A stretch of 64,000 nucleotides of DNA. Origin: a virus. Below the pieces are notes generated by a model. That model saw only the letters and a list, made by a program, of their open reading frames with translations, searched no databases and was not told where the DNA came from. Positions 3,280 through 60,193 of this stretch are shown piece by piece (position 1 is the first letter of the stretch; every line of letters begins with the position of its first letter). The stretch lies in the IMG/VR virus record IMGVR_UViG_3300036782_000052, positions 6,239 through 70,238 of that record; one strand, given 5' to 3'. Position numbers and translations under genes: made by a program.

Positions 3280-3723
3280 TTGGGCGACATCGCTATCGTC
3301 TTCGACCCGGTCAGCTTCACCGGGGACTTCGCCATGTCCGGCGCCGGCCTGCTGCTTGGCAACGAGCTGCAGACCGCGGTGCTGATCTCGCTGTTCACCG
3401 ATGGCGTGGCCTCGCCCGACGACATCATGCCGCCCAGCCAGGTCAACGACCCGCGTGGCTGGTGGGCGGATACCTACACGAACGATCCGATCGGCTCGAA
3501 GCTCTGGCAGGCGTTCTGGCGCCAGACGACGCCTGGCACCGTGAACTGGCTCAACGACACGGCGAACAAGGCCGTGCAATGGATGCTGGACGATGGCGTG
3601 GCGTCCTCTGTCACGGTGAATGCCCAATTGTTGGGGCCTGGCCGGATCGGGTTCAGCGGCACCATCATCGAGCCCTCCGGTCGGCCGACGCCGTTCTCCT
3701 GGGTGTGGAAACAAGAGGGGTAG
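3280..3723 (+). CDS. Mu gp46-like baseplate protein
   Basis: LQTAVLISLFTD...RGWWAD...GSKLW...WMLDDGVA signature. Confidence 0.9.
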   Translation: MGDIAIVFDPVSFTGDFAMSGAGLLLGNELQTAVLISLFTDGVASPDDIMPPSQVNDPRGWWADTYTNDPIGSKLWQAFWRQTTPGTVNWLNDTANKAVQWMLDDGVASSVTVNAQLLGPGRIGFSGTIIEPSGRPTPFSWVWKQEG

Positions 3724-3727
3724 TCGA

Positions 3728-4870
3728 TTGCCGTTCCCCCGCCCCACCCTCACCGCGCTGCGCACGCAGGCGATGCAGGATATCACCGCGTCGGACCTGC
3801 CGAACGCCGACGGCTTCCTGCGCCGCTCGGCGCTCCGGGTGTTGGCGTGGGTGCAGGCCGGGCTGGCCTATCTGCACTATGGCTACCTCGACTGGATCTC
3901 CAAGCAGTCGGTGCCCTACACCGCGACCGGCGAGTTCTTGGAAGCCTGGGCGGCGCTGGCGCCGACCCCGGTCTACCGCCTGGCACCGTCGCCGGCGACC
4001 TGTCCGCAGGTCACCTTCACCGCCATCACCACCACCCCGCCGGTCGTCATCCCGCCCGGCACGCTGATGTATCGATCGGACCTGACGCAGTATCAGACCA
4101 CCGCCGCGGGGACCGCTGTCGGCGGTGTGGTGACGGTTGCCATCGCGGCTGTGGTGGCGGGCTCTGCCGGTAACGCCGACGCTGGCACCGCGCTCTCGCT
4201 GTCCACCGTCATCGCCGGTGTGACGACCTCGTCCGGTATCGCGGTGACCGCGATCGGCGGCGGCACCGACCTTGAACTGGATGCCTCGCTGACCAGCCGC
4301 ATGCTGGAGAGCTATGCCAACCCGCCCTCTGGCGGATCGAGCGCCGACTACGTCACCTGGGCGCTTGAGGTGCCGGGCGTAACGCGGGCCTGGACCCGCG
4401 CCAACGGCATGGGGCCCGGTTCGGTCGTCGTCTACTTCATGGAGGACGTGGCGGAAGCGGCGCACAACGGCTTTCCGCAAGGCACCAACGGCGTGGCGAC
4501 CGGCGAGGCCCGGGCGTCCGTGGCGACCGGGGATCAGCTGGCGGTGGCCAATTGGATCTATCCGCTGCAACCGGTGACGGCGCTGGTCTATGCGGCGGCG
4601 CCGATCGCCCAACCGGTGAACTTCACGCTGACCGGCCTCTCCAGCATCAGCGGCGCCCAGCAAGCGCTCGTCAAGAGCGCGATTGCCGCGACCTTGGTCG
4701 CGCTCGGCAGTCCGCTCGCTGCGGCGCCCGGCATCCAGCAGAGCCAGATCCAGTCGGCGATCGCCGCCATCGCCGGGCTGCCAAACTTCGCCGTCACTGC
4801 GCCGACGGTCTGGCCGATCACGCCCGCTGTCGGGTCGCTGCTGACACTGGGCGTCGTGACCTTCGCCTAA
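3728..4870 (+). CDS. baseplate J / Mu gp47 protein
   Basis: PFPRPTL start, PYTATGEFLEAWA, GGSSADYVTWALEVPGVTRAW; TTG start at 3728. Confidence 0.9.
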   Translation: MPFPRPTLTALRTQAMQDITASDLPNADGFLRRSALRVLAWVQAGLAYLHYGYLDWISKQSVPYTATGEFLEAWAALAPTPVYRLAPSPATCPQVTFTAITTTPPVVIPPGTLMYRSDLTQYQTTAAGTAVGGVVTVAIAAVVAGSAGNADAGTALSLSTVIAGVTTSSGIAVTAIGGGTDLELDASLTSRMLESYANPPSGGSSADYVTWALEVPGVTRAWTRANGMGPGSVVVYFMEDVAEAAHNGFPQGTNGVATGEARASVATGDQLAVANWIYPLQPVTALVYAAAPIAQPVNFTLTGLSSISGAQQALVKSAIAATLVALGSPLAAAPGIQQSQIQSAIAAIAGLPNFAVTAPTVWPITPAVGSLLTLGVVTFA

Positions 4871-26014: not shown

Positions 26015-26314
26015 TTCCTCGGCTCCAAAAAGAGCCGGACGGATCCCTTGGGCACAAATTCGCTACATCAAGTTTTTTCCACTTGATCGAGCGGCTGATT
26101 CGGGGCACATGGGAGGGAGTTTCAGTCCTCTCATGTGCCGTCGGTGTGGTTCCCAAATACGTCCGTGGCTGGACGGGGGATCGCTCCGGCGGTTTCTACA
26201 TTCAAGCTCCTTTTGCGACGCCCGGCCGAATCCGGCGGGCGGCTCAACAACCTTGACAAGAAAACTGTTTGTTATAACCCGAGTCAAGCAATTGTATTCG
26301 GGGGCGAAGCTTCG

Positions 26315-27145
26315 GTGTCGGAAGCGATCAATCGCGTGCATGAGCAATGCGTGTGTGAAACCGAACTGGCACAGCGGCTGCGGGCGGCAAATCGGCTTGA
26401 GCGGAGGCCGATGTATGGCGAGATCGCCGATGAATACACCCGCCGATTTCCCGAACATCTGCCGAAGGACAGCGCGCGGAAAGTGCGGACGGCCGGGTTC
26501 GAGCGGCGTTTCCTAGCCCGGTTTCTGGCGCCGACGATGACCGTCGCCGAGATCGGCCCGGGGCGCTGTCATTTGGCCTTTTCGTTGGCGCCGCTGGTCG
26601 GGCATATCTATGGCATCGATGTCGCCAGCGGCTACGTCGACAAGGACAGGGCGCCAGCCAATTTCGACCTGATGTTGACCGATGGCATTCATCTGCCACC
26701 GCCCACCGCGAGTGTCGATCTGGTCATCAGCAATCAGCTCATGGAGCATTTGCATCCGGAGGACGCGATCGAGCAGCTGCACGAAATCCATCGCATCTTG
26801 AAACCCGGTGGCGGCTACGTCTGCGTTACCCCGAGTTGCATCAACGGCCCGCATGATTGCTCGGCCTATTTCGATGATCTCCCGTGCCCGATCCGTGGCA
26901 AAAACTATGCGGCGACTGGGCTGCATCTGAAGGAGTACACCACCCGCGAGATCGTCCAGGTGTTTCTCGATGTCGGATTTCGCGAGGTGCAAACCTGGAT
27001 TGGCGCGCGAGGCTACTATGTCTCGGTGCCGACGGCGCTCTTGAACCTGATCGAAGCTGGCGCGCAACTGGCCCCCGCCGAGCTGCGCAAACGCTCACCC
27101 CTGCTGGGGACGATCGTGGGCAACCGCCTCTATGCGGTGAAGTAG
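26315..27145 (+). CDS. class I SAM-dependent methyltransferase
   Basis: EIGPG, GIDV, DLVISNQLMEHLH, HRILKPGG; start uncertain (ORF open from 26135). Confidence 0.8.
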   Translation: MSEAINRVHEQCVCETELAQRLRAANRLERRPMYGEIADEYTRRFPEHLPKDSARKVRTAGFERRFLARFLAPTMTVAEIGPGRCHLAFSLAPLVGHIYGIDVASGYVDKDRAPANFDLMLTDGIHLPPPTASVDLVISNQLMEHLHPEDAIEQLHEIHRILKPGGGYVCVTPSCINGPHDCSAYFDDLPCPIRGKNYAATGLHLKEYTTREIVQVFLDVGFREVQTWIGARGYYVSVPTALLNLIEAGAQLAPAELRKRSPLLGTIVGNRLYAVK

Positions 27146-27432
27146 ACTGCCGTCCTCGCGGAGTTCGGCGAGCATGTTCTCGCGCGTGGCCGCGGCATCG
27201 GGGTGGCTCAGTTGCGCCAGGGTTTCGGCGCAGCCCGCGTAGAACGCCCAGCGCGCGATAGTCATGGCGCATCGTGGCATGCCCGCCATCCGCAGGGCCT
27301 GCTCCAGCGGCGCCCAAGACGAGGCGATCGTGCGAACAAATAGCATTTCCGTCCCCCTATTGAAAAAACAAACTAATTGTTCTCAAACTCGGCGCGGTAC
27401 TACCGAGCGTAAACCAGCCGGGATGGTTCGCC

Positions 27433-27906
27433 ATGAAAAACCGAGACAATGTCCGCTCGATCCGCGGGCTTGACGCAGAGACCTGGGAAATGGCCGGAAA
27501 CTGTGCCGGTCGCGCCGACGAGACGCTAGCCGCGTGGCTGAAACGTGCCATCGAGCAGCTGGCTGCGGGAGAGGCGTCCGGCCCACGGTTTGTACTACCG
27601 GGTAAACCGGAACCAAACGTGAAACAGGTCGGGATGGACATCCACGATGTTGGGGTGCTGTTGCAGTCGATGAGCGCTTTCGTTGTGGCCACCCAGACGC
27701 GACCCAAGAAGCTGGTGCTCAACAGAGCGCATCGCTTGTTTGATGCCTGCGTGCGATCGGGCCTCGGCATGCGCCCACCCGCCAGGTCTCCAGGCTTCGA
27801 TGTACTACGCGATGTACTACCTGAGCCGAAAAACGTACTACACGATGACATTTCAATAGCTTCCGAAGAGGGCGACGGCACCCGCGAGGAGGATGCCGTC
27901 GCCTAA
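27433..27906 (+). CDS. putative ribbon-helix-helix DNA-binding protein
   Basis: SIRGLD.ETW..A...A....TLAAWL.RAI. Confidence 0.5.
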   Translation: MKNRDNVRSIRGLDAETWEMAGNCAGRADETLAAWLKRAIEQLAAGEASGPRFVLPGKPEPNVKQVGMDIHDVGVLLQSMSAFVVATQTRPKKLVLNRAHRLFDACVRSGLGMRPPARSPGFDVLRDVLPEPKNVLHDDISIASEEGDGTREEDAVA

Positions 27907-27910
27907 GCTT

Positions 27911-28946
27911 CGTGACCGTCCTGCCGAGCCCGACCGCGCCCAGTCCGGCGCTGCCTTCACGAGCCGCACCTGGACCGCCACGCCATCCCTGGCCTTGCCG
28001 AGCCCTGGCGTTGCGCGCCGTGACCGCCACGCCTCGCCGAGCCAAATCCAGCCTAGCATCGACATGCCAGTCCTCGACCGCCGGGCCGGACCGGGCCACG
28101 CCGTGACCGGCCGCGCCCCGCCATGCCTCCACCGTCGCCAGTGGCGGCCTCGACCGCCAAGCCCGGCAGTGCCGTGCCAGCCCGCGCCATGCCCAGCCGC
28201 GCCTTGCGCTCGCCAATCCTCGACCGCCAGGCCCAGCCTCGCACTGGCTTGCCGTGACCGGCCGCGCCATGCCGGTCCTCGCCCCGCCAGTCCGAACCGC
28301 GACCGCCGCGCCAGGCCGTTGCCAAGGACGAGCCGGACCACGCCTAGCCGTGCCAAGCCAAACCTCGACCGCCCCGCGCCGCCTGCCCAAGCCTCGCCAA
28401 GCCTCGAAACTCCGCGCACAACGATGCCTCGACCGCCTGGCCTAGACCTGCCTCGGCAGGCCTCGCCATACGCCGCCCCGACCGCCTTTCCATGACCCAG
28501 CCCACCCATAAGCTCTCGCTTCCGGATGGACGATTTGCGCCCTATTGCAAGCCAAGCCCCGCCTCGCCTTACCGGGCAATCGCATGCCAGTCCTCGACCG
28601 CCATGCCTCGCCAATCCTCCCCAGGACTGGACGCGCCGGGCCTGCCTTGACCGCCAAGCCCCGCCCTGACATGCCCAGCGAACGCCGCGCCGGACCCCGC
28701 CAAGCCACCCCAAGCCGCGACCGCCAAGGCCACACGTCGCCGCGCCAGGCCGAGCCCTGCCTTTGCTCGACCCGCCATGGCATTCCGTGACCGCCAGGCC
28801 TCGCCCCGCCATCACCGGACAGGCCGCGCCCGGCCGCGCCTTGCCGTGCCGCGACCGCCATGCCGTGCCACGCCGAACCTCGCCGCGCCGGGGGCCGCCC
28901 GGCCTAGCCAGTTCCTCGACCGCCTTTCCATGACCCAGCCCACCCA
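27911..28946 (-). repeat. non-coding array of NN-GGY pentamer tracts separated by GGCGGTC (candidate guide-RNA array)
   Basis: + strand GACCGCC at 27973, 28022, 28076, 28152, 28222, 28301, 28367, 28431, 28480, 28596, 28649, 28719, 28789, 28853, 28918, with RCC recurring every 5 nt between them; starts at the stop codon of 28947..29423. Confidence 0.85.
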
Positions 28947-29423
28947 TCAAGCTCTCGCTTCCGGATGGACGATGTGTTCCAGGAACAGTGACACGTCTGC
29001 CTGGATCGTTTCGACTTGCCCACTCAAGCCAAGCACGGCGGCAACGGCTTGGGCTCGACGTAAGGCCGCAACAACAAGACGAAATTCCTGAACACACGCA
29101 TCCCGAGCGCGGTCGACATCGGTCCGCAGTGTTCCAGTCGAGACATAGCCAGCTTCTTTGGCGGGCTGGACAGGATCTCGAATGTAGGCTGGCGCTTTCA
29201 GTGTATATTTGGTCGTTATGACTTCAAGCCTGACGCTGGCGATGAGTGTGCGGGCTTGATCCAGCAGGCGTTCTTGCGCGGCCTTTCTGGTGTTCCACGT
29301 GAAGAACGAATGCAAAACCGAGTTGGGCGGTCTTGCCTCGTCGACGACCTCCTGTGGCGTGAGGCGGCCGCGGTTTCGGGCCGCGATCGCAGCAAGCGCG
29401 GCCTCGACATCTGGACGCGCCAT
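28947..29423 (-). CDS. small helical protein coupled to the RAMP-like gene
   Basis: LTPQEVVDEAR...LHSFFTW...AA....QAR.LI; TGATG overlap with the upstream gene. Confidence 0.75.
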   Translation of the reverse strand: MARPDVEAALAAIAARNRGRLTPQEVVDEARPPNSVLHSFFTWNTRKAAQERLLDQARTLIASVRLEVITTKYTLKAPAYIRDPVQPAKEAGYVSTGTLRTDVDRARDACVQEFRLVVAALRRAQAVAAVLGLSGQVETIQADVSLFLEHIVHPEARA

Positions 29424-30325
29424 CAGGCGTGGGCTCCCCGACCATTGCTCCGCCGCTTTTTGGTGGTGGCGGCCGTGGCGAATGCAACGGTGTCGGTGGG
29501 GTCGTCCGGCGCCGTGTCCGCGCCGGGGAATTCGATGGGACGGTCGCTCTTCTTGCCGCCGCGTCCCCGCCGCACGATCTCCGCAAGATACCAGTCCAGC
29601 AGTTCTTGCGTGTCCTGGTCATAACATTGGTATGTCTCCAATGCTGAGTCCTGAGCGACGCGACCCTCACTCTGGATGTCCAGATACTCAGGATCGTCCG
29701 GCTCGCAGATGCGCCAAAGTCCGTGCGAGCCGCTGCCTTTCTCTTGTCGCCAGTCCCCCACGCCCGAGGTGATGCCGCCGGCGGCAAAGAGATTGAAGAT
29801 GCTCGTTGCGTTCAACTTCGGCTGCACGAAGTTGACGCTCACCTTGCACGCCCAGCGCGGCAGGATGGCGCGGGTCCGGATATCAGGCGTTCGGGCAATA
29901 TCGGCGGAACGAACCACCGCCATCAGGAGTTGCGGCGTTCCGAAAACGTCGAAGTTCCCATGCGGGATCGACACCAGCCGGCCGATCGCCGATTTGGTTG
30001 CGCCGGGCAAATCCAACGCCGCCGTCTGCATCGCCCCCTTGAACGCCGCCGAGGGGATCTTGAGTCGCGTGGCGACCTTGGGGCCGAAGTTCTTGTAGAC
30101 GCTGTCGCGGTATTCCTGCGGCGGATCGTGTTTGAGGGTTGCCGCCTTCTCCGCGTCGTTCTTGCGCCCGCTGGGCAGCAGCAGCGTTCGCTTGGCCTTT
30201 TCCGCCATGCGGTTCTCAATCATTGGCGTTGTGCCAACGAGGTAGAAATCGACCGTGCCGACATAGATCGGCAGAATAGCGATTTCCTTTGAGACTTCTT
30301 TCTTTGAAGCGAGTGCCATTGTCAT
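29423..30325 (-). CDS. stand-alone Cas7/RAMP-like RNA-binding protein
   Basis: N-terminal LVGTTPMI, IPSAAFKGAM, C-terminal Gly-rich loop GVGDWRQEKGSGSHGLW, in RAMP order. Confidence 0.75.
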   Translation of the reverse strand: MTMALASKKEVSKEIAILPIYVGTVDFYLVGTTPMIENRMAEKAKRTLLLPSGRKNDAEKAATLKHDPPQEYRDSVYKNFGPKVATRLKIPSAAFKGAMQTAALDLPGATKSAIGRLVSIPHGNFDVFGTPQLLMAVVRSADIARTPDIRTRAILPRWACKVSVNFVQPKLNATSIFNLFAAGGITSGVGDWRQEKGSGSHGLWRICEPDDPEYLDIQSEGRVAQDSALETYQCYDQDTQELLDWYLAEIVRRGRGGKKSDRPIEFPGADTAPDDPTDTVAFATAATTKKRRSNGRGAHA

Positions 30326-30582
30326 CCCTTCCCGACACTTGTTGTCGCGCGTCGTTTTGTTGTCACCGGAGGCTCCGCGCGATCGGCCCCCTGCTTGACT
30401 TCCGCGGTCTGCCAGAATACCCGCGGCCCGAGCTTCTTGCCGGCGAGATCCTCGCCGTTCTCCAGCGACGGCATGTGGTCGGTGCGTTGGCCATCAAGGA
30501 TTTCGCTGAGCCTCTGCTTGACGAACTCGATGGTCACCGCATCCTCCACCGTAACCTCGAGCCGCAGTCTGATCTGTTTCAT
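30322..30582 (-). CDS. hypothetical protein
   Basis: GGGGGA RBS; ATGA overlap with the RAMP-like gene. Confidence 0.55.
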   Translation of the reverse strand: MKQIRLRLEVTVEDAVTIEFVKQRLSEILDGQRTDHMPSLENGEDLAGKKLGPRVFWQTAEVKQGADRAEPPVTTKRRATTSVGKG

Positions 30583-30616
30583 TTATCCCCCTTATGTCGG
30601 GCTCGCGGCCGAGGAC

Positions 30617-31741
30617 CTATATCAACGGACCCGCTTCCGGCTGGCCGTTCCGGGGCTTGGCGTTCTGCTCGGCCTTACCCCGCTTGGCGCTCTCATCGCG
30701 CGCCTTGATGACCTCTCCGGCCAGGTCCGGCCGTTCTTTCACCAGATAGTCGATGTCATCGCGGTGCTTCTTCTGATCCATGATCTTGAAGTGGTCGGCC
30801 ATTGACTTCGTGGCCTTGAACATCGCGATCAGCTTGCGGGCGCCATCGCGGTCCTTGTCGGGCGGAGCAGTTTGCGCTTTTTGCAAATTGCCCTTGTCGT
30901 CGACCGGGTTGCTCTCAGCGGCGGGTGGTAGGGCAGGGGTGTTGTCACCGGACGGCGGATCGGTGGAAACTGTTGCTTCTCGCCGTGACTCCGGCTTGCG
31001 CTTGCCGCGCGCCCAGGCCGCGAGGCGCTCGCCGGTGGCCTCATCGATTGGCTTGTTCATGTCGATCAGTGGCTCAATCTGATCGAGCTTCTTGAGCCAA
31101 GTGGGAACGCCTGGACGGGCTAAGTCGAACATGAAGCCGACCGTCATCGCGCCGATGACGTCCCGCTCGCCGCACACGGGCAGGAAGCCAATATCGACCG
31201 GCTTGATCTTCCCGGTCTTCGGATCCTTGATCAGATCGACTTTCTTCGCGGCCTGGCAGCACAACACGATGTGGGTATTCAACTGCCAAAGCCGCTGCAT
31301 CATGTGGTTGCGCTCGGCTTTGGGCTTGATCCAGGCCGCCATCTTGACGCGCTCGCGCTTCTCGTAGTCGCCGCCGGCCATGCGCTGTAGCTCCGCTTCA
31401 AACATGTCGAGCACGCCGCCCGGACCGACATGCTCATGCGAGAAACTATCGATCACGAGGACGGATGACTTGCGTCGTTGCGAGATGACCGCCGCCGCTT
31501 CGAAGCGGGCCGGATTGAATGGTTCGTGTAGCTCTAGATGGTTGAACTTGAACTCGTCCGCGTAATAGAGCGCCCGCCCATGTTCGGTGTCGCAGAAGTC
31601 GATCTCACCGCCGCATGCGAGCCCGGTCGCGAGCCGGAGTGCGCTTTTGGTCTTGCCTGACCCGCTTGGGCCGGAGAGCATGATCAGCAGGCCGACGTTG
31701 CCGCGCTTGGCCGGCGTGTAGATCAGCGGCTCGCTGCTCAC
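30617..31741 (-). CDS. AAA_24 / Sak4-like ATPase (single-strand annealing)
   Basis: Walker A GPSGSGKT, DTEHG, LVIDSFSHE. Confidence 0.85.
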   Translation of the reverse strand: MSSEPLIYTPAKRGNVGLLIMLSGPSGSGKTKSALRLATGLACGGEIDFCDTEHGRALYYADEFKFNHLELHEPFNPARFEAAAVISQRRKSSVLVIDSFSHEHVGPGGVLDMFEAELQRMAGGDYEKRERVKMAAWIKPKAERNHMMQRLWQLNTHIVLCCQAAKKVDLIKDPKTGKIKPVDIGFLPVCGERDVIGAMTVGFMFDLARPGVPTWLKKLDQIEPLIDMNKPIDEATGERLAAWARGKRKPESRREATVSTDPPSGDNTPALPPAAESNPVDDKGNLQKAQTAPPDKDRDGARKLIAMFKATKSMADHFKIMDQKKHRDDIDYLVKERPDLAGEVIKARDESAKRGKAEQNAKPRNGQPEAGPLI

Positions 31742-32146: not shown

Positions 32147-33208
32147 TCATCCGCCGAAGTTGCCGGTGTCGATGTAGCCAACCGCGTTCGGGTGGTCGCG
32201 GCCGCGTAAGATGTCGCGGTTGCGCGGTGAGATCAGCGCTTGGGTCTCACGCTCACGCAGGATCCAGCCCGGCGGGTCGATCCATTGCGGGGTGAGCGGA
32301 TAGGACGGCCAGGTGTTGGTCTGGATACAGTGCTTCCAGGTATCGATGCCATAGCGCACGTCTTGGTCGCCAATCTCGCGGGTGATCGGCGACATCTGAA
32401 AGACCGCGATGCCATAAGGTGGATTCTGCTCGACGACGCAAAATTTCAGGGCGCCGGGTGGTTCGCCGCGGACCATTTCCAGGCCGCGAGCATAAAAGGC
32501 ATCCTGTAAGTAGGCACCTTTCTGAAACGCGATCTTCGCCCAGACGGCGTGGGTGGCGAAGCCGCCAGTGGTTTTGAGATCCCACGGGTCGGCCTCGGGC
32601 TCGTCGGGTAGCCAGTCGACGCGCGCGCGGCACCAGATGGCGGTCTCGGCCGAGGGCTTTGGCGCCCCCGCACGGGCACGCGCCGGTTGGCTGTCATTCA
32701 CCAAGTGGCCCGTGGGTTCGATGAACTCTTCCTTCCAGACCACGGTCTGTTCCGGTCGGCCTTTCGTAAACGCGCCGGTGCGGGCCCGAAAGCCTTCGAG
32801 CACGTCGATGAGGCTCATGGCCCTGTCATACCCTCGGACCAGCAGCGGGATCATCCCGTCGGCGTAGGCCTGCCGGCGCGCGTCCTTGGCCGCGTTGGTG
32901 CGCCAGTCCTTGAAGTCGAGCCGGCGGATGATGCTGCGGCCTTGCAGGAACGAGGCGTGCGCCGCGGTGCCGAAGTCGGCCACTTCATCATCAGTGTCGG
33001 TATCGAGGTCGGGCGGCAGCCCGAGGCGCGGATGCAGCGCCCAGCCATGCCGGGCGGATTGGTCAACCAGCCGCAGGATGATGGAGCGCGAGAGCGATGG
33101 CGTCGGGCAGGGGTCCGCGTGGTAGCGCGCGTCCGTCATGTCGTAGATCCCGGGCGCGACGATCGGCGAGTCGGGCAACGTCAGGACCACAGCGGTTCTC
33201 CATGACAA
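32147..33208 (-). CDS. PD-(D/E)XK exonuclease, RecE/DUF3799-like
   Basis: YHADP...SLS.S, FGTAAH, CRARVDWL, DLKTT, QDAFY. Confidence 0.85.
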   Translation of the reverse strand: MSWRTAVVLTLPDSPIVAPGIYDMTDARYHADPCPTPSLSRSIILRLVDQSARHGWALHPRLGLPPDLDTDTDDEVADFGTAAHASFLQGRSIIRRLDFKDWRTNAAKDARRQAYADGMIPLLVRGYDRAMSLIDVLEGFRARTGAFTKGRPEQTVVWKEEFIEPTGHLVNDSQPARARAGAPKPSAETAIWCRARVDWLPDEPEADPWDLKTTGGFATHAVWAKIAFQKGAYLQDAFYARGLEMVRGEPPGALKFCVVEQNPPYGIAVFQMSPITREIGDQDVRYGIDTWKHCIQTNTWPSYPLTPQWIDPPGWILRERETQALISPRNRDILRGRDHPNAVGYIDTGNFGG

Positions 33209-33437: not shown

Positions 33438-34154
33438 TTAGCTGCGAGGCTGTTCCTCTAGCGGACCTAGCCCCGGACCACGTCTTCCAGGGCGATTGGT
33501 GCCCTCATTCACGCTATCCATGTATATGTCGTCAGCGTCAGATCCGATTAGCAACGTCGGATGACGCCGCAGCACCGCGGACAGAAAGTCGCGATCTGGC
33601 TCGCGGATACGGCCTGCAAACAAGAAGTCGATCGATACACTGAAGCGATAGGCGAACTCGCTCAGTTTGCTCAGCGTCGGGCGCTCAAGCCCGGCCTCGA
33701 TCCGCAGCCAGTGCGTGACATCGAGCCCCATCGCCACCGCGACTTTCTCAATGTCTGGTTCCTTCATCTCGCGCACCCAGCGGATCCGGTCGGCCATCGA
33801 CGGGGATAGCGTGAGAGCCATAAGTTCCAGATCGCTCAGGTGATTTTCGTCGCGGCTCAGCGCGCCGTCCAGCAAGGTATCGATCGAGGTGCCGGTGAGG
33901 GCGCGAATTTGCATCAAGGGCACCACGCCGATCTCATTGCGCCCCGACTCCCACTGGCGATAGGTACTGTCGTCGATGACGAGCATGCGCGAGAACTCCC
34001 GCTGGGTGAGGTTGGGCTTACCAATGCTGAGCCCGTAGGCGCGACGCAATCGCGTCAGACGCCGTCCCAGAAGACGGTTCAGCGCCTTGTCCTGGCCGCG
34101 CTTTTTCCCGAGCCGGACCGCTATAGCGTCGGGTTCGTTCGCTAAGTCTGACAT
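33438..34154 (-). CDS. CI-like repressor with two XRE HTH domains
   Basis: LTQREFS.ML.I..STY.QWESG and a second HTH ending IEAG.ERP; divergent from the cro-like gene. Confidence 0.8.
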   Translation of the reverse strand: MSDLANEPDAIAVRLGKKRGQDKALNRLLGRRLTRLRRAYGLSIGKPNLTQREFSRMLVIDDSTYRQWESGRNEIGVVPLMQIRALTGTSIDTLLDGALSRDENHLSDLELMALTLSPSMADRIRWVREMKEPDIEKVAVAMGLDVTHWLRIEAGLERPTLSKLSEFAYRFSVSIDFLFAGRIREPDRDFLSAVLRRHPTLLIGSDADDIYMDSVNEGTNRPGRRGPGLGPLEEQPRS

Positions 34155-50128: not shown

Positions 50129-51076
50129 TCAGATCAGTTGCGATCGATTGTTCAGTTGGCGTGTCAGTTGATGGTAGTGTTCCGGCAGCTGGCGGAACGT
50201 TTGTTTGTCGATCGTGGCACCGCCTTTCTCGTCCGGCAGACGCTCCCAGCCGTTGTCGATCAACCACTGAAAGCGCCTGCCTGGGCTCAATGTCGCCGGG
50301 GCATTCGTCCAGTTCGGATGCGAGCGTATCTGGCCGGATTGCTTGTGCCAGAGCGGGATCTCGGCCCGTCGCGCCGCATTCATGGCATCGACCAGCCATT
50401 TTCGCTCCATGATACGGGCACCAGCACCACTCTCGCCGCCGGTGATCGCCCACGAAATGCCTTCCAGGTTGATCTGATCGGTCGGGCCGATGATGGGCTC
50501 AATGCTGACGAAGAACGTCCCAGTGCCGGCGCATCGCCCCTTGATCGTGCGCATGACGTTCAACCGCGGTGCGACGTCGTTGTTCTCGACCGAGACGCCG
50601 ATCCAGATATTCGCTGGGATGCCGCTCTTGCCATAGCGCGCAACGAGGATCTTACGCGCCCGGATCGGCCGCTTGGTCAGTATTTGGAAGATCGTTTCCG
50701 GCGCGGCCTCGAAGGCGTCGAGGGCCTGGTGAATAGCCTCCTCCGGCACGTCATCGTGCCAGAAGTCGGACATTGAATTGACGAAGCACAGGTAGGGCAG
50801 TCGCTTGCCGTCCGCCTCGACATGCGGCCGCATCCTGCGGATGTGGCTCAGCCGATCGAGGTGCAACACCACCCGGTCGAAGGGCGCGGCGAACTTTGCC
50901 TTGGTGATGGCGGCGCGGCTGGCCGGGGTATCCCCCGGCCCTCCACCCATCTTCGCGAACCGCGTCACCAGCGCTTCGGCATAGCAGTTGTTGCAGCCGG
51001 CGCTGACCTTGTGACAGCCGACCCACGCATTCAGCGTGCCACTACACCAACTGATACCGCTGTTCAGTACGACCAT
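50129..51076 (-). CDS. DUF5131 / phage Gp37-Gp68 radical-SAM-like protein
   Basis: GCHKVSAGCNNCYA, FVNSMSDFWH, QILTKR, GVSVEN, TGGESG..AR. Confidence 0.9.
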   Translation of the reverse strand: MVVLNSGISWCSGTLNAWVGCHKVSAGCNNCYAEALVTRFAKMGGGPGDTPASRAAITKAKFAAPFDRVVLHLDRLSHIRRMRPHVEADGKRLPYLCFVNSMSDFWHDDVPEEAIHQALDAFEAAPETIFQILTKRPIRARKILVARYGKSGIPANIWIGVSVENNDVAPRLNVMRTIKGRCAGTGTFFVSIEPIIGPTDQINLEGISWAITGGESGAGARIMERKWLVDAMNAARRAEIPLWHKQSGQIRSHPNWTNAPATLSPGRRFQWLIDNGWERLPDEKGGATIDKQTFRQLPEHYHQLTRQLNNRSQLI

Positions 51077-57230: not shown

Positions 57231-57393
57231 TGTGCTTCACTCACTGGTGTGTGTATCACTCACTTTTGTGTGCTTCACTCACTCTCTATTGAGTGCTTCA
57301 CTCACTGTTGTGTGCTTCACTCTCTCTCTATTGAGTGCTTCACTCTCTATTGTGTGTATCACTCCGTTATGTGTCATTTCACTCTCTATTGAG
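57231..57393. repeat. degenerate 19-23-bp tandem repeats (GTGCTTCACTC...TATTG)
   Basis: about eight units; 23-mer AGTGCTTCACTCTCTATTGTGTG shared with 59961. Confidence 0.8.
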
Positions 57394-57402
57394 CCATGAG
57401 TC

Positions 57403-57860
57403 CAGGGCCGGCAGGGCCGGCAGGGCCGGCAGGGCCGCTCCGAGGGGCAGGGGCAGGGCCGGCAGGGCCGCAGGGCCGCTCCGAGGGGCAGGGGCAGGGC
57501 CGCAGGGCCGCAGGGCCGGTCCGACGCGCAGGGGCAGGGCCGCAGGGCCGGCAGGGCCGGTCCGAGGGGCAGGGGCAGGGCCGCAGGGCCGCAGGGCCGG
57601 TCCGACGCGCAGGGGCAGGGCCGCAGGGCCGGCAGGGCCGCTCCGAGGGGCAGGGGCAGGGCCGGCAGGGCCGCAGGGCCGCTCCGAGGGGCAGGGGCAG
57701 GGCCGGCAGGGCCGCAGGGCCGCTCCGAGGGGCAGGGGCAGGGCCGCAGGGCCGCAGGGCCGGTCCGACGCGCAGGGGCAGGGCCGCAGGGCCGGCAGGG
57801 CCGGTCCGAGGGGCAGGGGCAGGGCCGCAGGGCCGCAGGGCCGGCAGGACCGATCCGACG
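57403..57860. repeat. G-rich 40-41-bp tandem repeat of GCAGGG(CC) blocks
   Basis: TCCGA anchors at 57439, 57480, 57520, 57561, 57601, 57642, 57683, 57724, 57764, 57805, 57854. Confidence 0.9.
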
Positions 57861-57894: not shown

Positions 57895-57928
57895 TTGGGC
57901 TTGTCAGCTATAAAACTGACAAGCCCAA
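57895..57928. other. 13-bp perfect hairpin at the end of the island operon
   Basis: TTGGGCTTGTCAG-N8-CTGACAAGCCCAA. Confidence 0.65.
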
Positions 57929-57950
57929 TAAACCGATAGTTTGAGTTTAT

Positions 57951-58130
57951 CTAATCTCTGAGAATACCGGAGGAAATTTCTTGACCGAATATCTCATAGA
58001 AGCAGGATTGCAGGGCCAACATTTTCTCTCCCCCATGTTCTACCTCAAAACCGAACCGTTTAGCTAGGTCTTGTGCTGCATTAACAGTAACCTCAATGAC
58101 TGCCATATTCTTCACTTCATCATATGCCAT
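57951..58130 (-). CDS. small hypothetical protein
   Basis: AGGA RBS, follows 58135..58740. Confidence 0.5.
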   Translation of the reverse strand: MAYDEVKNMAVIEVTVNAAQDLAKRFGFEVEHGGEKMLALQSCFYEIFGQEISSGILRD

Positions 58131-58134
58131 GGTC

Positions 58135-58740
58135 TTATTTCCTGCCTTGTTTGTTATCAACCGGCTTCACTGCCGCCGATTTATAGCTATCCAATATCTG
58201 AGTGCAGATATTCTCAACCAAGGAATAAACCGGACCGCGCTTAGTCCGGTTGCCGTCAAACTCAATCCAGTTAACCCGCCGATTCCAGGTTACAGCCTGC
58301 ACTGCCATGGCAAAACTTGAGTCCTCCGAATCTGCCGCTGACTTGCTGATGACCATGTTCAAGTCGCGCATGGTCTTAGTTACCGCTTCAAAATCCGCAA
58401 CCGTTCCGTTTTCAATGGTGCCGATAACCTCCCCATATCCCGTGAAGCTAGTTGGCTTATCTGCCGAGTCCGTCACTGCCATGAGACAGATATCCCGCAT
58501 AGCTGAATCCGACGTGGGGATATCCGACAGATTGCCGCTACTGGACTCAAAACCGAATGTGCAAACAATCCGGCTGATTCCGCCAGTCTGTCCGACTTTG
58601 ATGGACATAATGAGGTCCACATCTTTAGGTCTCTCCGTAGGGACTGCCGCCCCCCGGCTAGCTTGACCGGCCGCAGACTTGGGTACCCATCCATTAGCAA
58701 TCCGGGTATCCCATGCCTTTTTAGCTGATTCAGTAGTCAT
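58135..58740 (-). CDS. hypothetical early protein
   Basis: GGAGG RBS and leader hairpin. Confidence 0.65.
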   Translation of the reverse strand: MTTESAKKAWDTRIANGWVPKSAAGQASRGAAVPTERPKDVDLIMSIKVGQTGGISRIVCTFGFESSSGNLSDIPTSDSAMRDICLMAVTDSADKPTSFTGYGEVIGTIENGTVADFEAVTKTMRDLNMVISKSAADSEDSSFAMAVQAVTWNRRVNWIEFDGNRTKRGPVYSLVENICTQILDSYKSAAVKPVDNKQGRK

Positions 58741-58866
58741 ATGATTAAACCTCCAAACAACATACCGGCTTAACTACCGATAAGATGTCTATCCTATGAT
58801 AGACACAAGCATGGGGCAAGTATCCCGATTAAGAGATACCGCCCCATGCTTGTGTTTATCTCACAG

Positions 58867-59493
58867 TCAACCGATGGAGAGCAATTTTGCCATATCCCCA
58901 AGGAGTCGCCGCATAAGGCTAACCTTATCCTCCGTGACCGGGGCAACCGAGACCGGGGCAACCGAGACCGGGGCAGGGGCAGGGGCAACCGTCCACTCCC
59001 CAGTCTTGTTCAGGAAGTCAGATAGCCGCTGCTCTGGTGTGGCAGTCTTCCGATAAGTCGCCATGCCCATAGCAGCCGCCTTGGCCCTCTTGGTCTCTGC
59101 CGCCTTGGCGCCTGCCGCCAAGAGCGCAGCATGCCGTTCCGGACTCCTGCCGGCAGGACAAGGCACTGATTGCCCGCTGCTGACAGGGGCAACCGAGACA
59201 GGGGCAGGGGCAGGGGCAACCGAGACAGTAGCAGCCGGACCATGCTTAGCAGTCAATTCCGCAATCCGGTCAGCAACCGTCTTGCCGCCATGGCGCTTAG
59301 TCCATACTGCCTTTTGTCCGCCAGTCATGCCGGATAGTTCCGACAATTCCTGTATTTCCATAAGAGTGTTAGCCTCTTTATTGGCTTGCCGTGTAGCAGC
59401 CGCCTTATTGGCTCTATCAATATGAGAAGCCTTCTTGGCAACATCATGGATAGTAACAGACTTGCCGATAACCTTATTTGACTTCTTAGACAT
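58867..59493 (-). CDS. basic, Ala/Pro-rich hypothetical early protein
   Basis: GGAG RBS and leader hairpin; KAxxT[RK] and APVSV repeats. Confidence 0.65.
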   Translation of the reverse strand: MSKKSNKVIGKSVTIHDVAKKASHIDRANKAAATRQANKEANTLMEIQELSELSGMTGGQKAVWTKRHGGKTVADRIAELTAKHGPAATVSVAPAPAPVSVAPVSSGQSVPCPAGRSPERHAALLAAGAKAAETKRAKAAAMGMATYRKTATPEQRLSDFLNKTGEWTVAPAPAPVSVAPVSVAPVTEDKVSLMRRLLGDMAKLLSIG

Positions 59494-59556
59494 AGTATAG
59501 ACTCCAAAATACCGGCTTAACTACCGATAGGTTAGGCCGTGGTTGGCCCGCAAAAA

Positions 59557-59929: not shown

Positions 59930-60146
59930 ACTCTTTATTGAGTGATATCAATCACTTATGAGTGCTTCACTCTCTATTGTGTGAGATGGCTCTTTTGTGA
60001 GTTATGTCAATCACTTGTGAGTGTTATCCCTCTTTTGTGAGTTATATCAATCACTTGTGAGGGAGATGCCTCTTTTGTGTGTGATATCAATCACTTGTGA
60101 GGGATCTCCCTCTTTTGTGTGTGATATCAATCATTTGTGTGTGATC
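59930..60146. repeat. AT-rich 20-bp tandem repeats with 40-bp higher-order period
   Basis: alternating TCTTTTGTG.GT.AT.TCAA and TCACTTGTGAG units. Confidence 0.85.
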
Positions 60147-60147
60147 T

Positions 60148-60193
60148 GGGTCCTTCACATGTGATTTACGACGGAGGGCATTGCGCGCGCCCT
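60148..60193 (+). other. candidate lambda-like cos site (cosQ + cosN)
   Basis: GGGTCCT at 60148 and pseudo-palindrome AGGGC-N9-GCCCT centred about 30 nt downstream, at the switch from leftward to rightward genes ahead of the terminase. Confidence 0.5.

Follow-up and report, generated by a model that had tools for sequence, protein, structure and literature searches.

A phage locus with a Vipr-like RAMP protein and a GGYNN repeat array probably encodes a VIPR system

The window analysed here is a 64,000-nt stretch of an IMG/VR virus record (IMGVR_UViG_3300036782_000052, positions 6,239 to 70,238). The phage nature of the 70-kb contig is indicated by genes for baseplate, tail fibre, small terminase, repressor and replication. 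In a run search, the sequence was found in two soil DNA runs only and in no RNA run, and the array described below is nearly identical in the second run, differing at its distal end (27902-28008).

The locus consists of a 300-aa ORF, a 158-aa ORF and a repetitive non-coding region (Table 1). The 158-aa ORF begins within the stop codon of the 300-aa ORF, at its final base, and this 1-nt overlap couples the two genes translationally. Both ORFs are full length and can be aligned along their whole families. Further upstream, the 86-aa ORF overlaps the 300-aa gene by 4 nt, which ties the latter to the AAA_24 ATPase and exonuclease VIII-like genes as a single transcription unit. No sigma-70-like promoter was found, and terminator-like sites occur at the level of shuffled sequence.

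Table 1. Features of the candidate VIPR locus and its neighbours (positions in the window)
Feature	Position	Strand	Description
Candidate Vipr gene	29423..30325	-	300-aa ORF; phrog_4652, function unknown; no Pfam family
Accessory (vap-like) gene	28947..29423	-	158-aa ORF; phrog_15946, function unknown; no Pfam family
Candidate vrRNA array	27911..28946	-	1036 nt, non-coding, directly 3' of the 158-aa gene
Leader element copy 1	28915..28972	-	two-copy sequence comparison; predicted hairpin 9+4 bp
Leader element copy 2	28480..28540	-	divides the array into two sub-arrays
86-aa ORF	30322..30582	-	upstream of vipr; its stop and the vipr start share 4 nt
AAA_24 ATPase gene	30617-31741		upstream neighbour of vipr
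Exonuclease VIII-like gene	32147-33208		upstream neighbour of vipr

None of 71 window ORFs matches a Cas family in PADLOC, the ORFs being a non-exhaustive set of about 86 aa or longer, picked by codon bias. Rfam at gathering thresholds has no match over the whole 64 kb, CRISPR repeat families included, and a search of 27000-31000 at E<=5 yields no hammerhead or other family, two chance-level rows excepted. The initial annotation, made from the letters of the DNA, had described a 300-aa protein with motifs in RAMP order, coupled to a 158-aa gene and followed on the same strand by about 15 units of mostly 49-79 nt delimited by GGCGGTC, with no cas1/2/3/10 or CRISPR array in the window. This description agrees with our results throughout: the motifs LVGTTPMI, IPSAAFKGAM and GVGDWRQEKGSGSHG are all present in the 300-aa ORF, and 13 of the 14 intervals between the 15 GGCGGTC words lie in the given range.

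The array is composed of 47% G and 74% G+C. In comparison with 1000 dinucleotide-preserving shuffles, the word GGYNNGGY is 7.6-fold enriched (74 occurrences, 9.7 +/- 3.1 in shuffles, maximum 19), and GGCGGTC is found 15 times against a shuffle mean of 0.56 (maximum 3). The GGCGGTC words are spaced by 65, 64, 70, 70, 53, 116, 49, 64, 66, 79, 70, 76, 54 and 49 nt, and the autocorrelation of GGC peaks at lags 5, 10 and 15 (0.41, 0.35 and 0.32). A 414-aa ORF does run across the array, but a period-3 signal is absent: the value is 0.31, while the 300-aa and 158-aa genes score 8.5 and 3.9. The array is therefore not coding.

The array holds 15-16 units, and our parse gives 16 units of 4-22 GGYNN pentamers, many of them degenerate (103/165 with canonical GGY). 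The cleanest units have 9/10, 8/9 and 7/9 canonical pentamers, and clean units lie, for example, at 28855-28796 and 28127-28083. Units open with GTC-RN and close with a 4-nt GGCG, so that the 9-nt junction GGCG/GTCRN (the slash marking the boundary) moves the pentamer register by -1. This junction is the sole separator; the units have no invariant structured 3' tail, and the predicted folds of three units are not consistently more stable than their shuffles (z 0.03, -1.7 and -2.45). Six of the 14 delimiter intervals are at 4 mod 5.

A putative leader element is present in two copies. Copy 1 takes in the 3' end of the 158-aa gene (9 codons plus the stop) and finishes within the first GGCGGTC; its predicted fold has -29.8 kcal/mol (z -1.9). 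Copy 2 differs from it by an internal 1-nt deletion and a few edge substitutions. Logan contigs break at both copies, as an exact repeat would predict.

The 300-aa protein is a single-domain Cas7-type RAMP. Its AF2 model (pLDDT 81, pTM 0.74) matches Csm3/Cas7 by Foldseek and VIA-align. The parts that can be assigned are a beta1 motif (G31-x-x-P34), a thumb hairpin with strands 132-139 and 147-155 carrying R152, and a G-loop (G188-V-G-D191-W192-R193). A conserved, helical C-terminal extension follows at about 211-255, and the final ~45 residues are disordered.

RAMP proteins of this kind are known from the VIPR (Viral Interference Programmable Repeat) systems, as described in a bioRxiv preprint (10.64898/2026.04.26.720920), with further preprints on their cryo-EM structure (10.64898/2026.04.26.720927) and on satellite competition (10.64898/2026.10.15.759431). 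The discovery preprint characterizes VIPR arrays by at least 4 tandem YNNGG/GGYNN units, typically 9-16, in which GGY is conserved and NN hypervariable, and lists 667 systems. It describes the loci as minimal, with vipr and one accessory gene, and as mostly viral or proviral (10.64898/2026.04.26.720920). Further marks of a VIPR system are vrRNAs that are expressed, processed and co-purified with Vipr, and guides that fit targets in competing mobile elements under the 1-nt-skip rule with an NN match of at least 80%. Type II of the seven types that it distinguishes is known from Escherichia phage SUSP1 and a Pseudomonas fulva prophage (10.64898/2026.04.26.720920).

We located the SUSP1 vipr gene at KT454805.2 28474-29061(-), with YNNGG repeats on its flanks. 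Residues H17, K33, R138, C173, D177, W178 and R179 of its product agree with the numbering of the cryo-EM paper (10.64898/2026.04.26.720927); T175 of that paper is V in the KT454805.2 record. BLASTP aligns the 300-aa protein to SUSP1 Vipr over the thumb and G-loop (E 2e-5). An alignment of the window Vipr family (36 sequences) matches the single SUSP1 sequence in hhalign with 95% probability (E 3.3e-8) and the SUSP1 Vipr family (29 sequences) with 97.3% (E 2.1e-11, 164 columns). The latter match places query residues 24-207 on SUSP1 3-188, nearly the full length of SUSP1 Vipr, with a 5-residue insertion in the G-loop of the window family. The aligned pairs, window residue first, are R152/R138, D191/D177, W192/W178, R193/R179, R46/K33 and N38/H17. 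Five of these six GGY-binding and skip-base residues are conserved in kind and one is substituted (H17 by N38). R152, D191 and R193 are invariant in the window family, and N38 is nearly invariant in the clade. We take the 300-aa protein to be a Vipr.

One search gave 1148 relatives of this protein at E<=1e-3. Relatives are encoded in 487 IMG/VR stretches. We analysed 82 loci, 74 of which have at least 1200 nt downstream, and sought an array within 2 kb. A same-strand array is found in 69/74 loci and an opposite-strand array in 0/74; 0.7% of background windows reach the array threshold. A homologue of the 158-aa protein directly follows the vipr homologue in 80/82 loci, the other two being cut short. 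The longest sense reading frame spans less than half of the array in 39/74 related arrays.

Among cultured phages, gene 19 of Gordonia phage ODay and gp49 of Mycobacterium phage Donkeykong are distant relatives, about 30% identical to the window protein, and lie beside GGYNN arrays, in genomic contexts that differ from that of the window. In ODay, a 214-nt gap accompanies gene 19. The 'gp48' annotation of Donkeykong overlies an array.

A delimiter-anchored logo of 90 units from 8 loci shows conserved GGY and nearly random NN positions (0.0-0.15 bits). The information at G1 is 1.0-1.7 bits in the first seven pentamers counted from the delimiter and 0.74-0.92 bits beyond them. The delimiter spacing is 4 mod 5 for 54/69 intervals in seven close relatives and for 253/399 intervals in all arrays with a recurrent delimiter. 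Arrays turn over fast between close relatives: two loci of a related subclade share 97.9% identity in vipr and 98.9% in vap, but only 57.5% over the initial 600 nt of the array.

The initial annotation had proposed a structure search against Cas7/Csm3 and a survey for homologues with adjacent arrays, and had noted a likeness to VIPR-type systems. The fold matches and the array co-occurrence both came out in favour, and the likeness is borne out by the printed description of VIPR (10.64898/2026.04.26.720920) together with the family-level hhalign match. Its reading of the units as RAMP-coated guides is supported. We conclude that the locus is very probably a phage-encoded VIPR system, with a 300-aa Vipr and a multi-guide vrRNA array of about 1 kb. 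The kind of system is already known, being described in the 2026 preprints.

The 158-aa protein shows no similarity to its SUSP1 counterpart, vap1, to which BLASTP gives no alignment and hhalign with the family alignment a probability of 0.1%. Its AF2 model (pLDDT 89) is predicted to have three N-terminal helices, a small beta sheet and a C-terminal helical hairpin. Foldseek against the PDB gives nothing at E<=0.001, and the ESM Atlas matches are only viral hypothetical clusters and a winged-helix Rep3 at TM 0.27. Pfam assigns no family, with scattered weak matches only (6/38 members to a Myb-like domain, E>=0.018), and neither Pfam nor PADLOC indicates a nuclease or helicase signature. The complex prediction of Vipr with the 158-aa protein has a score of 0.00, which is a verdict neither for nor against binding.

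We searched for targets under a 1-nt-skip rule with 13 window guides of 8 or more units. Matches to the 70-kb contig are at the level of shuffled guides, with no self-target, as are those to 598 kb of related loci (83 loci). The systems of the discovery preprint are likewise described as without self-targeting; targets were sought there by nhmmer with NNx profiles, requiring an NN match of 80% or more and zero gaps (10.64898/2026.04.26.720920). With 110 clean guides from 35 related loci, the contig gave 5 real and 8 shuffled matches at a score of 0.8 or more, and all loci with arrays masked gave 21 real and 25 shuffled. Exact IUPAC scans, which have little power because no mismatch is allowed, returned 0, 0, 2 and 5 matches in IMG/VR and 0 and 0 in metagenome contigs. 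Extension of the seven IMG/VR matches is at chance level, the best covering 18/18 bases over nine units and then 3/10.

The mechanism that we propose is carried over from the SUSP1 system. The array would share a transcript with vipr and the accessory gene, or be transcribed directly after them, within the recombination/early operon of the phage. Each GGYNN pentamer would be bound by one Vipr protomer, with the GGY bases flipped out and held by thumb R152 and by D191, W192 and R193 of the G-loop, leaving NN exposed. A filament on 8-15 pentamers would then read dsDNA as NNxNNx..., skipping one base per step, giving each filament a specificity of 16-30 bases over 24-45 bp. Once bound, the filament may keep a competing phage, prophage or satellite from being transcribed. 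Judging from the anatomy of the units, the 4-nt junction unit (GGCG/GTCRN) would break the protein register and mark the filament ends, replacing the structured 3' tail of SUSP1. The steps from transcription and processing to RNP assembly and DNA binding are inferred, as are the skip rule in this clade, its targets and what the 158-aa protein does; the system would presumably act without a nuclease.

A more specific version of this proposal, which we offer tentatively and which may well be wrong, is that guide boundaries are a pure register shift. A 4-nt GGY-N unit would halt one Vipr filament and start the next, so that a transcript of 1-2.5 kb would yield 15-38 guides, by cutting or by simple partition, and would need neither a structured tail nor a ribozyme nor a nuclease of its own. 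The 158-aa partner and the Vipr C-terminal extension would be the parts specific to this clade and would read the punctuation.

The array of the window is more degenerate than those of its relatives, and some or all of its guides may have decayed. The locus could accordingly be a decaying remnant, with proteins perhaps intact and an array of indels and broken GGY that no longer provides working guides. The low share of intervals in register (6/14, against 54/69 in close relatives), the 103/165 canonical GGY and the lack of a target in our searches are in keeping with this reading, which we nevertheless consider unlikely. Neither ORF is truncated, each can be aligned over its whole family, some units are clean, and functional vrRNAs are described as often internally degenerate (10.64898/2026.04.26.720920). 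Furthermore, the nearly identical array in the second soil run suggests that the array is maintained in a population.

That the locus is a VIPR relative working unlike SUSP1 appears quite improbable. It might follow another skip rule, target RNA, act destructively through the 158-aa protein or the C-terminal extension, or coat the whole ~1-kb transcript as one filament. The Vipr is about 100 residues longer, with its conserved extension and G-loop insertion, the accessory protein is from another family, the units are tail-less and abutting, and the 1-nt-skip rule gave no target; the seven types of the discovery preprint have accessory genes that differ and in some cases are nucleases (10.64898/2026.04.26.720920). 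Against this, the GGY-holding residues and the thumb are conserved, the GGY/NN logo is canonical, the 158-aa protein has no nuclease or helicase signature, and the target searches were low-powered.

The probability that the repeats are not guides at all is very small. They would instead form a G-rich structural element of DNA or RNA (a G-quadruplex, R-loop, recombination or packaging signal) beside a nucleic-acid-binding protein of the phage recombination module, or else a low-complexity coding ORF. Two-tetrad quadruplexes could in principle arise from GGNNN repeats, the locus lies directly after the exonuclease VIII-like gene and the AAA_24 ATPase gene, and the 414-aa ORF crosses the region. 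Against these readings stand the missing period-3 signal, the short sense frames of related arrays (39/74), near-random NN beside fixed GGY, arrays on the strand of the RAMP gene and never on the opposite one (0/74), homology to an experimentally studied Vipr, and the other genomic contexts in ODay and Donkeykong.

VIPR is a newly described form of RNA-guided DNA reading, with two bases read and one skipped, and has been proposed to be older than CRISPR. Read as a VIPR system, the locus adds a well-populated Vipr clade, in which the Vipr is longer, the accessory protein is a different one and the long multi-guide arrays carry -1 register punctuation. It offers a natural system in which to see how tail-less guides are delimited. 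ODay and Donkeykong are culturable entry points to this clade, and the phage annotation is corrected at Donkeykong 'gp48'. If the register-shift punctuation is true, it would be a new way to make guide RNAs, in arrays an order of magnitude above those of SUSP1.

Compared with type III CRISPR-Cas, the window protein has 9-15% sequence identity to the Cas7/Csm3 backbone subunits, and no Cas10, Cas5, Cas6, small subunit or repeat-spacer array was found at the window. The repeat period is 5 nt, not the 60-79 nt of CRISPR. VIPR proceeds in steps of 5 nt, sequestering three bases and reading two, whereas Cas7/Csm3 proceeds in steps of 6 nt with one flipped, and the expected target is dsDNA for the window system but RNA for type III Cas7/Csm3.

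The closer comparison is with SUSP1. Both systems are phage-encoded, with vipr, accessory gene and vrRNA array in order on one strand, a single-domain RAMP with the thumb Arg and the G-loop GVGDWR, GGY/NN pentamers (8-15 per unit in the window, 9-16 in SUSP1), no cas gene or CRISPR array found and no self-target. They differ in Vipr length (300 aa with C-terminal extension and G-loop insertion, compared with 195), in the unrelated accessory proteins and in the arrays, SUSP1 having one upstream vrRNA and three in a downstream array in place of 15-16 abutting units. SUSP1 vrRNAs carry a structured tail of ~35 nt (a pseudoknot), whereas the window has the 9-nt junction with its -1 register. The missing tail argues against type II, but not against VIPR, because array architectures are described as varying between types (10.64898/2026.04.26.720920). 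The legend of fig. S18 of the discovery preprint names 'staggered' vrRNA arrays, in which successive vrRNAs overlap by 1 nt, the end of one being the start of the next (10.64898/2026.04.26.720920). Compared by this legend alone, the abutting units with their -1 register shift fit the description, and our guess is that the window architecture is likely identical. A genomic language model has also singled out 99 VIPR-like clusters, described as intergenic, with a 5-nt entropy period and beside Vipr-like folds (10.64898/2026.10.21.760802), and the window shares with these the period-5 array and the adjoining Vipr-like fold.

The 300-residue protein matches no Pfam family, and in PHROGs it falls only in a family of unknown function. 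Its relatives amount to 1,148 proteins at an E value of ≤1e-3 in a word-indexed search and 1,494 cluster representatives in an exhaustive search, every named one in both searches being a "hypothetical protein." The reference for comparison is Escherichia phage SUSP1 (KT454805.2), where a 195-residue ORF (28474-29061, minus strand) and a 146-residue ORF are bordered by unannotated gaps packed with YNNGG repeats, each with a terminal hairpin tail. Residues H17, K33, R138, C173, D177, W178, and R179 of the 195-residue ORF agree with the numbering of a cryo-EM preprint (10.64898/2026.04.26.720927), which describes GGY as held by H17, R138, D177, W178, and R179 and the skipped base as contacted by K33; T175 of that paper is a valine in KT454805.2. 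The profile of the window family matches the single SUSP1 Vipr sequence (95%, E 3.3e-8) and an alignment of 29 SUSP1-family proteins (97.3%, E 2.1e-11, 164 columns), the latter match spanning residues 24 to 207 of the window protein and 3 to 188 of SUSP1 Vipr. R152, D191, W192, and R193 of the window protein are conserved counterparts of R138, D177, W178, and R179; K33 is replaced by R46 and H17 by N38. The window protein furthermore differs from SUSP1 Vipr in a 5-residue insertion in the G-loop and in a conserved helical extension (about residues 211 to 255), beyond which the chain continues as a disordered basic tail. The VIPR-type systems named in the initial annotation are in print, as 2026 preprints, and the profile match ties the window protein to them.

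One of these preprints (10.64898/2026.04.26.720920) describes VIPR as a phage-encoded RAMP (Vipr) with an accessory gene (vap) and guide RNAs named vrRNAs, which consist of 9 to 16 YNNGG repeats and then a conserved tail. According to that preprint, double-stranded DNA is read by the NN dinucleotides, one base being skipped at each repeat, and transcription is repressed. In the window, both genes and the candidate array lie on the minus strand, and the RAMP-order motifs and gene coupling described in the initial annotation are present as listed in the table.

Features of the candidate VIPR locus, in window coordinates
Feature	Position	Strand	Remark
300-aa ORF (vipr-like)	29423..30325	-	Carries the RAMP-order motifs
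158-aa ORF (accessory)	28947..29423	-	Start shares one base with the stop codon of the 300-aa ORF
Candidate vrRNA array	27911-28946	-	47% G
Leader element (~55 nt), copy 1	28915-28972	-	Sequence comparison of the two copies
Leader element (~55 nt), copy 2	28480-28540	-	Sequence comparison of the two copies
HTH repressor-like gene	33438-34154		vipr block lies downstream of it

The array contains 74 GGYNNGGY motifs, against 9.7 ± 3.1 expected (maximum 19), and 15 GGCGGTC delimiter words, against 0.56 expected (maximum 3), both in 1,000 dinucleotide-preserving shuffles. GGC recurs with a period of 5 (autocorrelation 0.41, 0.35, and 0.32 at lags 5, 10, and 15). The approximately 15 units of mostly 49 to 79 nt proposed from the sequence hold up with one exception, a delimiter spacing of 116 nt. 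A 414-residue ORF can be drawn across the array, but the period-3 power is only 0.31, compared with 8.5 for the 300-residue and 3.9 for the 158-residue gene, and the ORF was therefore rejected as coding and regarded as an artefact of base composition. Dynamic programming parsed the array into 16 runs of 4 to 22 pentamers, the 22-pentamer run being two units, since it has an in-frame delimiter inside. The runs open with GTC-RN and close with the 4-nt unit GGCG, which results in a -1 shift of the pentamer register at every junction (GGCG|GTCRN). Canonical GGY is found in 103 of the 165 parsed pentamers; the array is visibly more degenerate than those of its relatives, so that some guides may be dead.

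The leader element, comprising the last 9 codons of the 158-residue gene, a predicted 9+4-bp hairpin, and the first delimiter, is duplicated, and its second copy divides the array into two sub-arrays. This suggests either that the array grew through segmental duplication or that it contains an internal signal for a start or for processing.

The family alignment picked up relatives in 487 IMG/VR stretches; 80 loci were kept from these, and 2 from genome contigs were added. For 74 of these 82 loci, at least 1,200 nt is available downstream of the vipr homologue. An array, called as a same-strand window with at least 10 GGYNNGGY per 300 nt within 2 kb, is found in 69 of the 74, in line with the co-occurrence named as a check in the initial annotation, and an opposite-strand array window in none; 0.7% of 9,650 background windows reach 10. 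The five misses have counts of 6, 4, and 3 (L012, L013, and L014) and of 9 each (L032 and L040). In a logo of 90 units anchored on GGCGGTC, from the window and seven close relatives, the GGY/NN pattern persists for nine pentamers upstream of the delimiter, with G1 at 1.0 to 1.7 bits in the seven nearest pentamers and 0.74 to 0.92 in the two furthest, G2 at 0.4 to 0.8, Y3 at 0.3 to 1.1, and NN at 0.0 to 0.15. The close relatives have a delimiter spacing of 4 modulo 5 for 54 of 69 intervals, whereas the window reaches this for only 6 of 14; when every array that has a recurrent delimiter is counted, the figure is 253 of 399 intervals. In other subclades the delimiter is GGCAGGC, GGCAGTC, GGCTGGC, GGCGGTT, or a similar word, each fitting GGY-N-G. 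The closest GGCGGTC-type relative (L005, 5339-7878, an IMG/VR contig; identical in L007) carries the largest and cleanest array seen, 2.5 kb with 38 delimiters and 4 modulo 5 spacing in 32 of 37 intervals. Between L019 and L020, two loci of a 49% G+C subclade, identity reaches 97.9% for vipr and 98.9% for the accessory gene but only 57.5% for the first 600 nt of the array, indicating that arrays turn over much faster than genes.

Among cultured phages, 32 records contain distant relatives, with about 30% identity. In Gordonia phage ODay (L085, MW534375.1), Vipr-like gene 19 is followed by a 214-nt unannotated gap (3612-3826) with GGYNN runs at 3632-3774; this locus has an unusual place between the tail assembly chaperone and tape measure genes. 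In Mycobacterium phage Donkeykong (L086, NC_051648.1), GGYNN pentamers at 2505-2850, directly upstream of Vipr-like gp49, are overlain by the annotated hypothetical protein gp48 (2486-2872), which is probably a vrRNA array miscalled as a gene.

A homologue of the 158-residue protein follows vipr in 80 of the 82 loci, and the other two end 0 and 362 nt past the vipr gene. Fold and family searches gave no recognizable fold or family for this protein, and no relation to SUSP1 vap1 was detected. On the upstream side, the start of the 300-residue ORF has a 4-nt overlap with a minus-strand 86-residue ORF, preceded by genes for an AAA_24 ATPase and an exonuclease VIII/DUF3799 protein; order and overlaps indicate a single leftward block. 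No promoter-like site was found at the locus. Judging from gene order only, this position in the recombination/early block points to expression at an early stage of infection or induction.

By homology, a single protomer would cover each pentamer, the thumb Arg and the G-loop Asp-Trp-Arg sequestering GGY and leaving NN free. A filament across 8 to 15 pentamers would then recognize double-stranded DNA as NNx repeats and, once bound, block transcription of a competitor. The 4-nt junction unit is the sole conserved punctuation of the array and may end one filament and start the next. No guide target was found by any search, which is weak evidence, since the scans of large collections permitted no mismatch.

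The source record is a single contig of 70,238 nt (the window being bases 6239-70238), classed as viral by one tool and carrying baseplate, tail-fibre, small terminase, ParB-like, ligase, and replication genes. The stretch is present in two soil metagenome DNA runs. In the second, the array is identical over 28480-28946, whereas its distal end (27902-28008) differs by 13 substitutions and 6 gap positions; the final unit or units are therefore variable in the population. Elsewhere in the window, a class I methyltransferase ORF (26135-27145, plus strand) matches the PADLOC model mad2 (E 7.6e-19), and a 315-residue ORF (50129-51076, minus strand) matches the candidate defence models PDC-M41B and PDC-M30B (E 4.5e-53). 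A 41/81-nt tandem repeat (57410-57844, plus strand; 10.6 copies, 93% matches), rich in CAGGGCCG and GGGGCA, was rejected as a GGYNN array. Iteron-like 19- to 42-nt repeats lie on either side of it (57231-57393 and 59939-60165), and between them is a low-G+C island (about 57900-59520) that carries ORFs of 201 and 208 residues, both on the minus strand; the arrangement may represent either an origin or an inserted element.

The initial observation holds, its interpretation has support, and the window locus is a VIPR system. Since VIPR is described in the 2026 preprints, which also include one on 99 period-5 VIPR-like clusters (10.64898/2026.10.21.760802) and one on satellite competition (10.64898/2026.10.15.759431), the system is not new as a kind. 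Seven VIPR types are described, with staggered, ribozyme-interspersed, and single array architectures; the fig. S18 legend mentions staggered arrays with 1-nt overlaps (10.64898/2026.04.26.720920), which, compared by this legend alone, are probably the same thing as the window's junctions. Compared with the studied type II VIPR, the large clade of the window has a longer Vipr and a different accessory protein, and its arrays are long, lack tails, and have a -1 register shift as punctuation.
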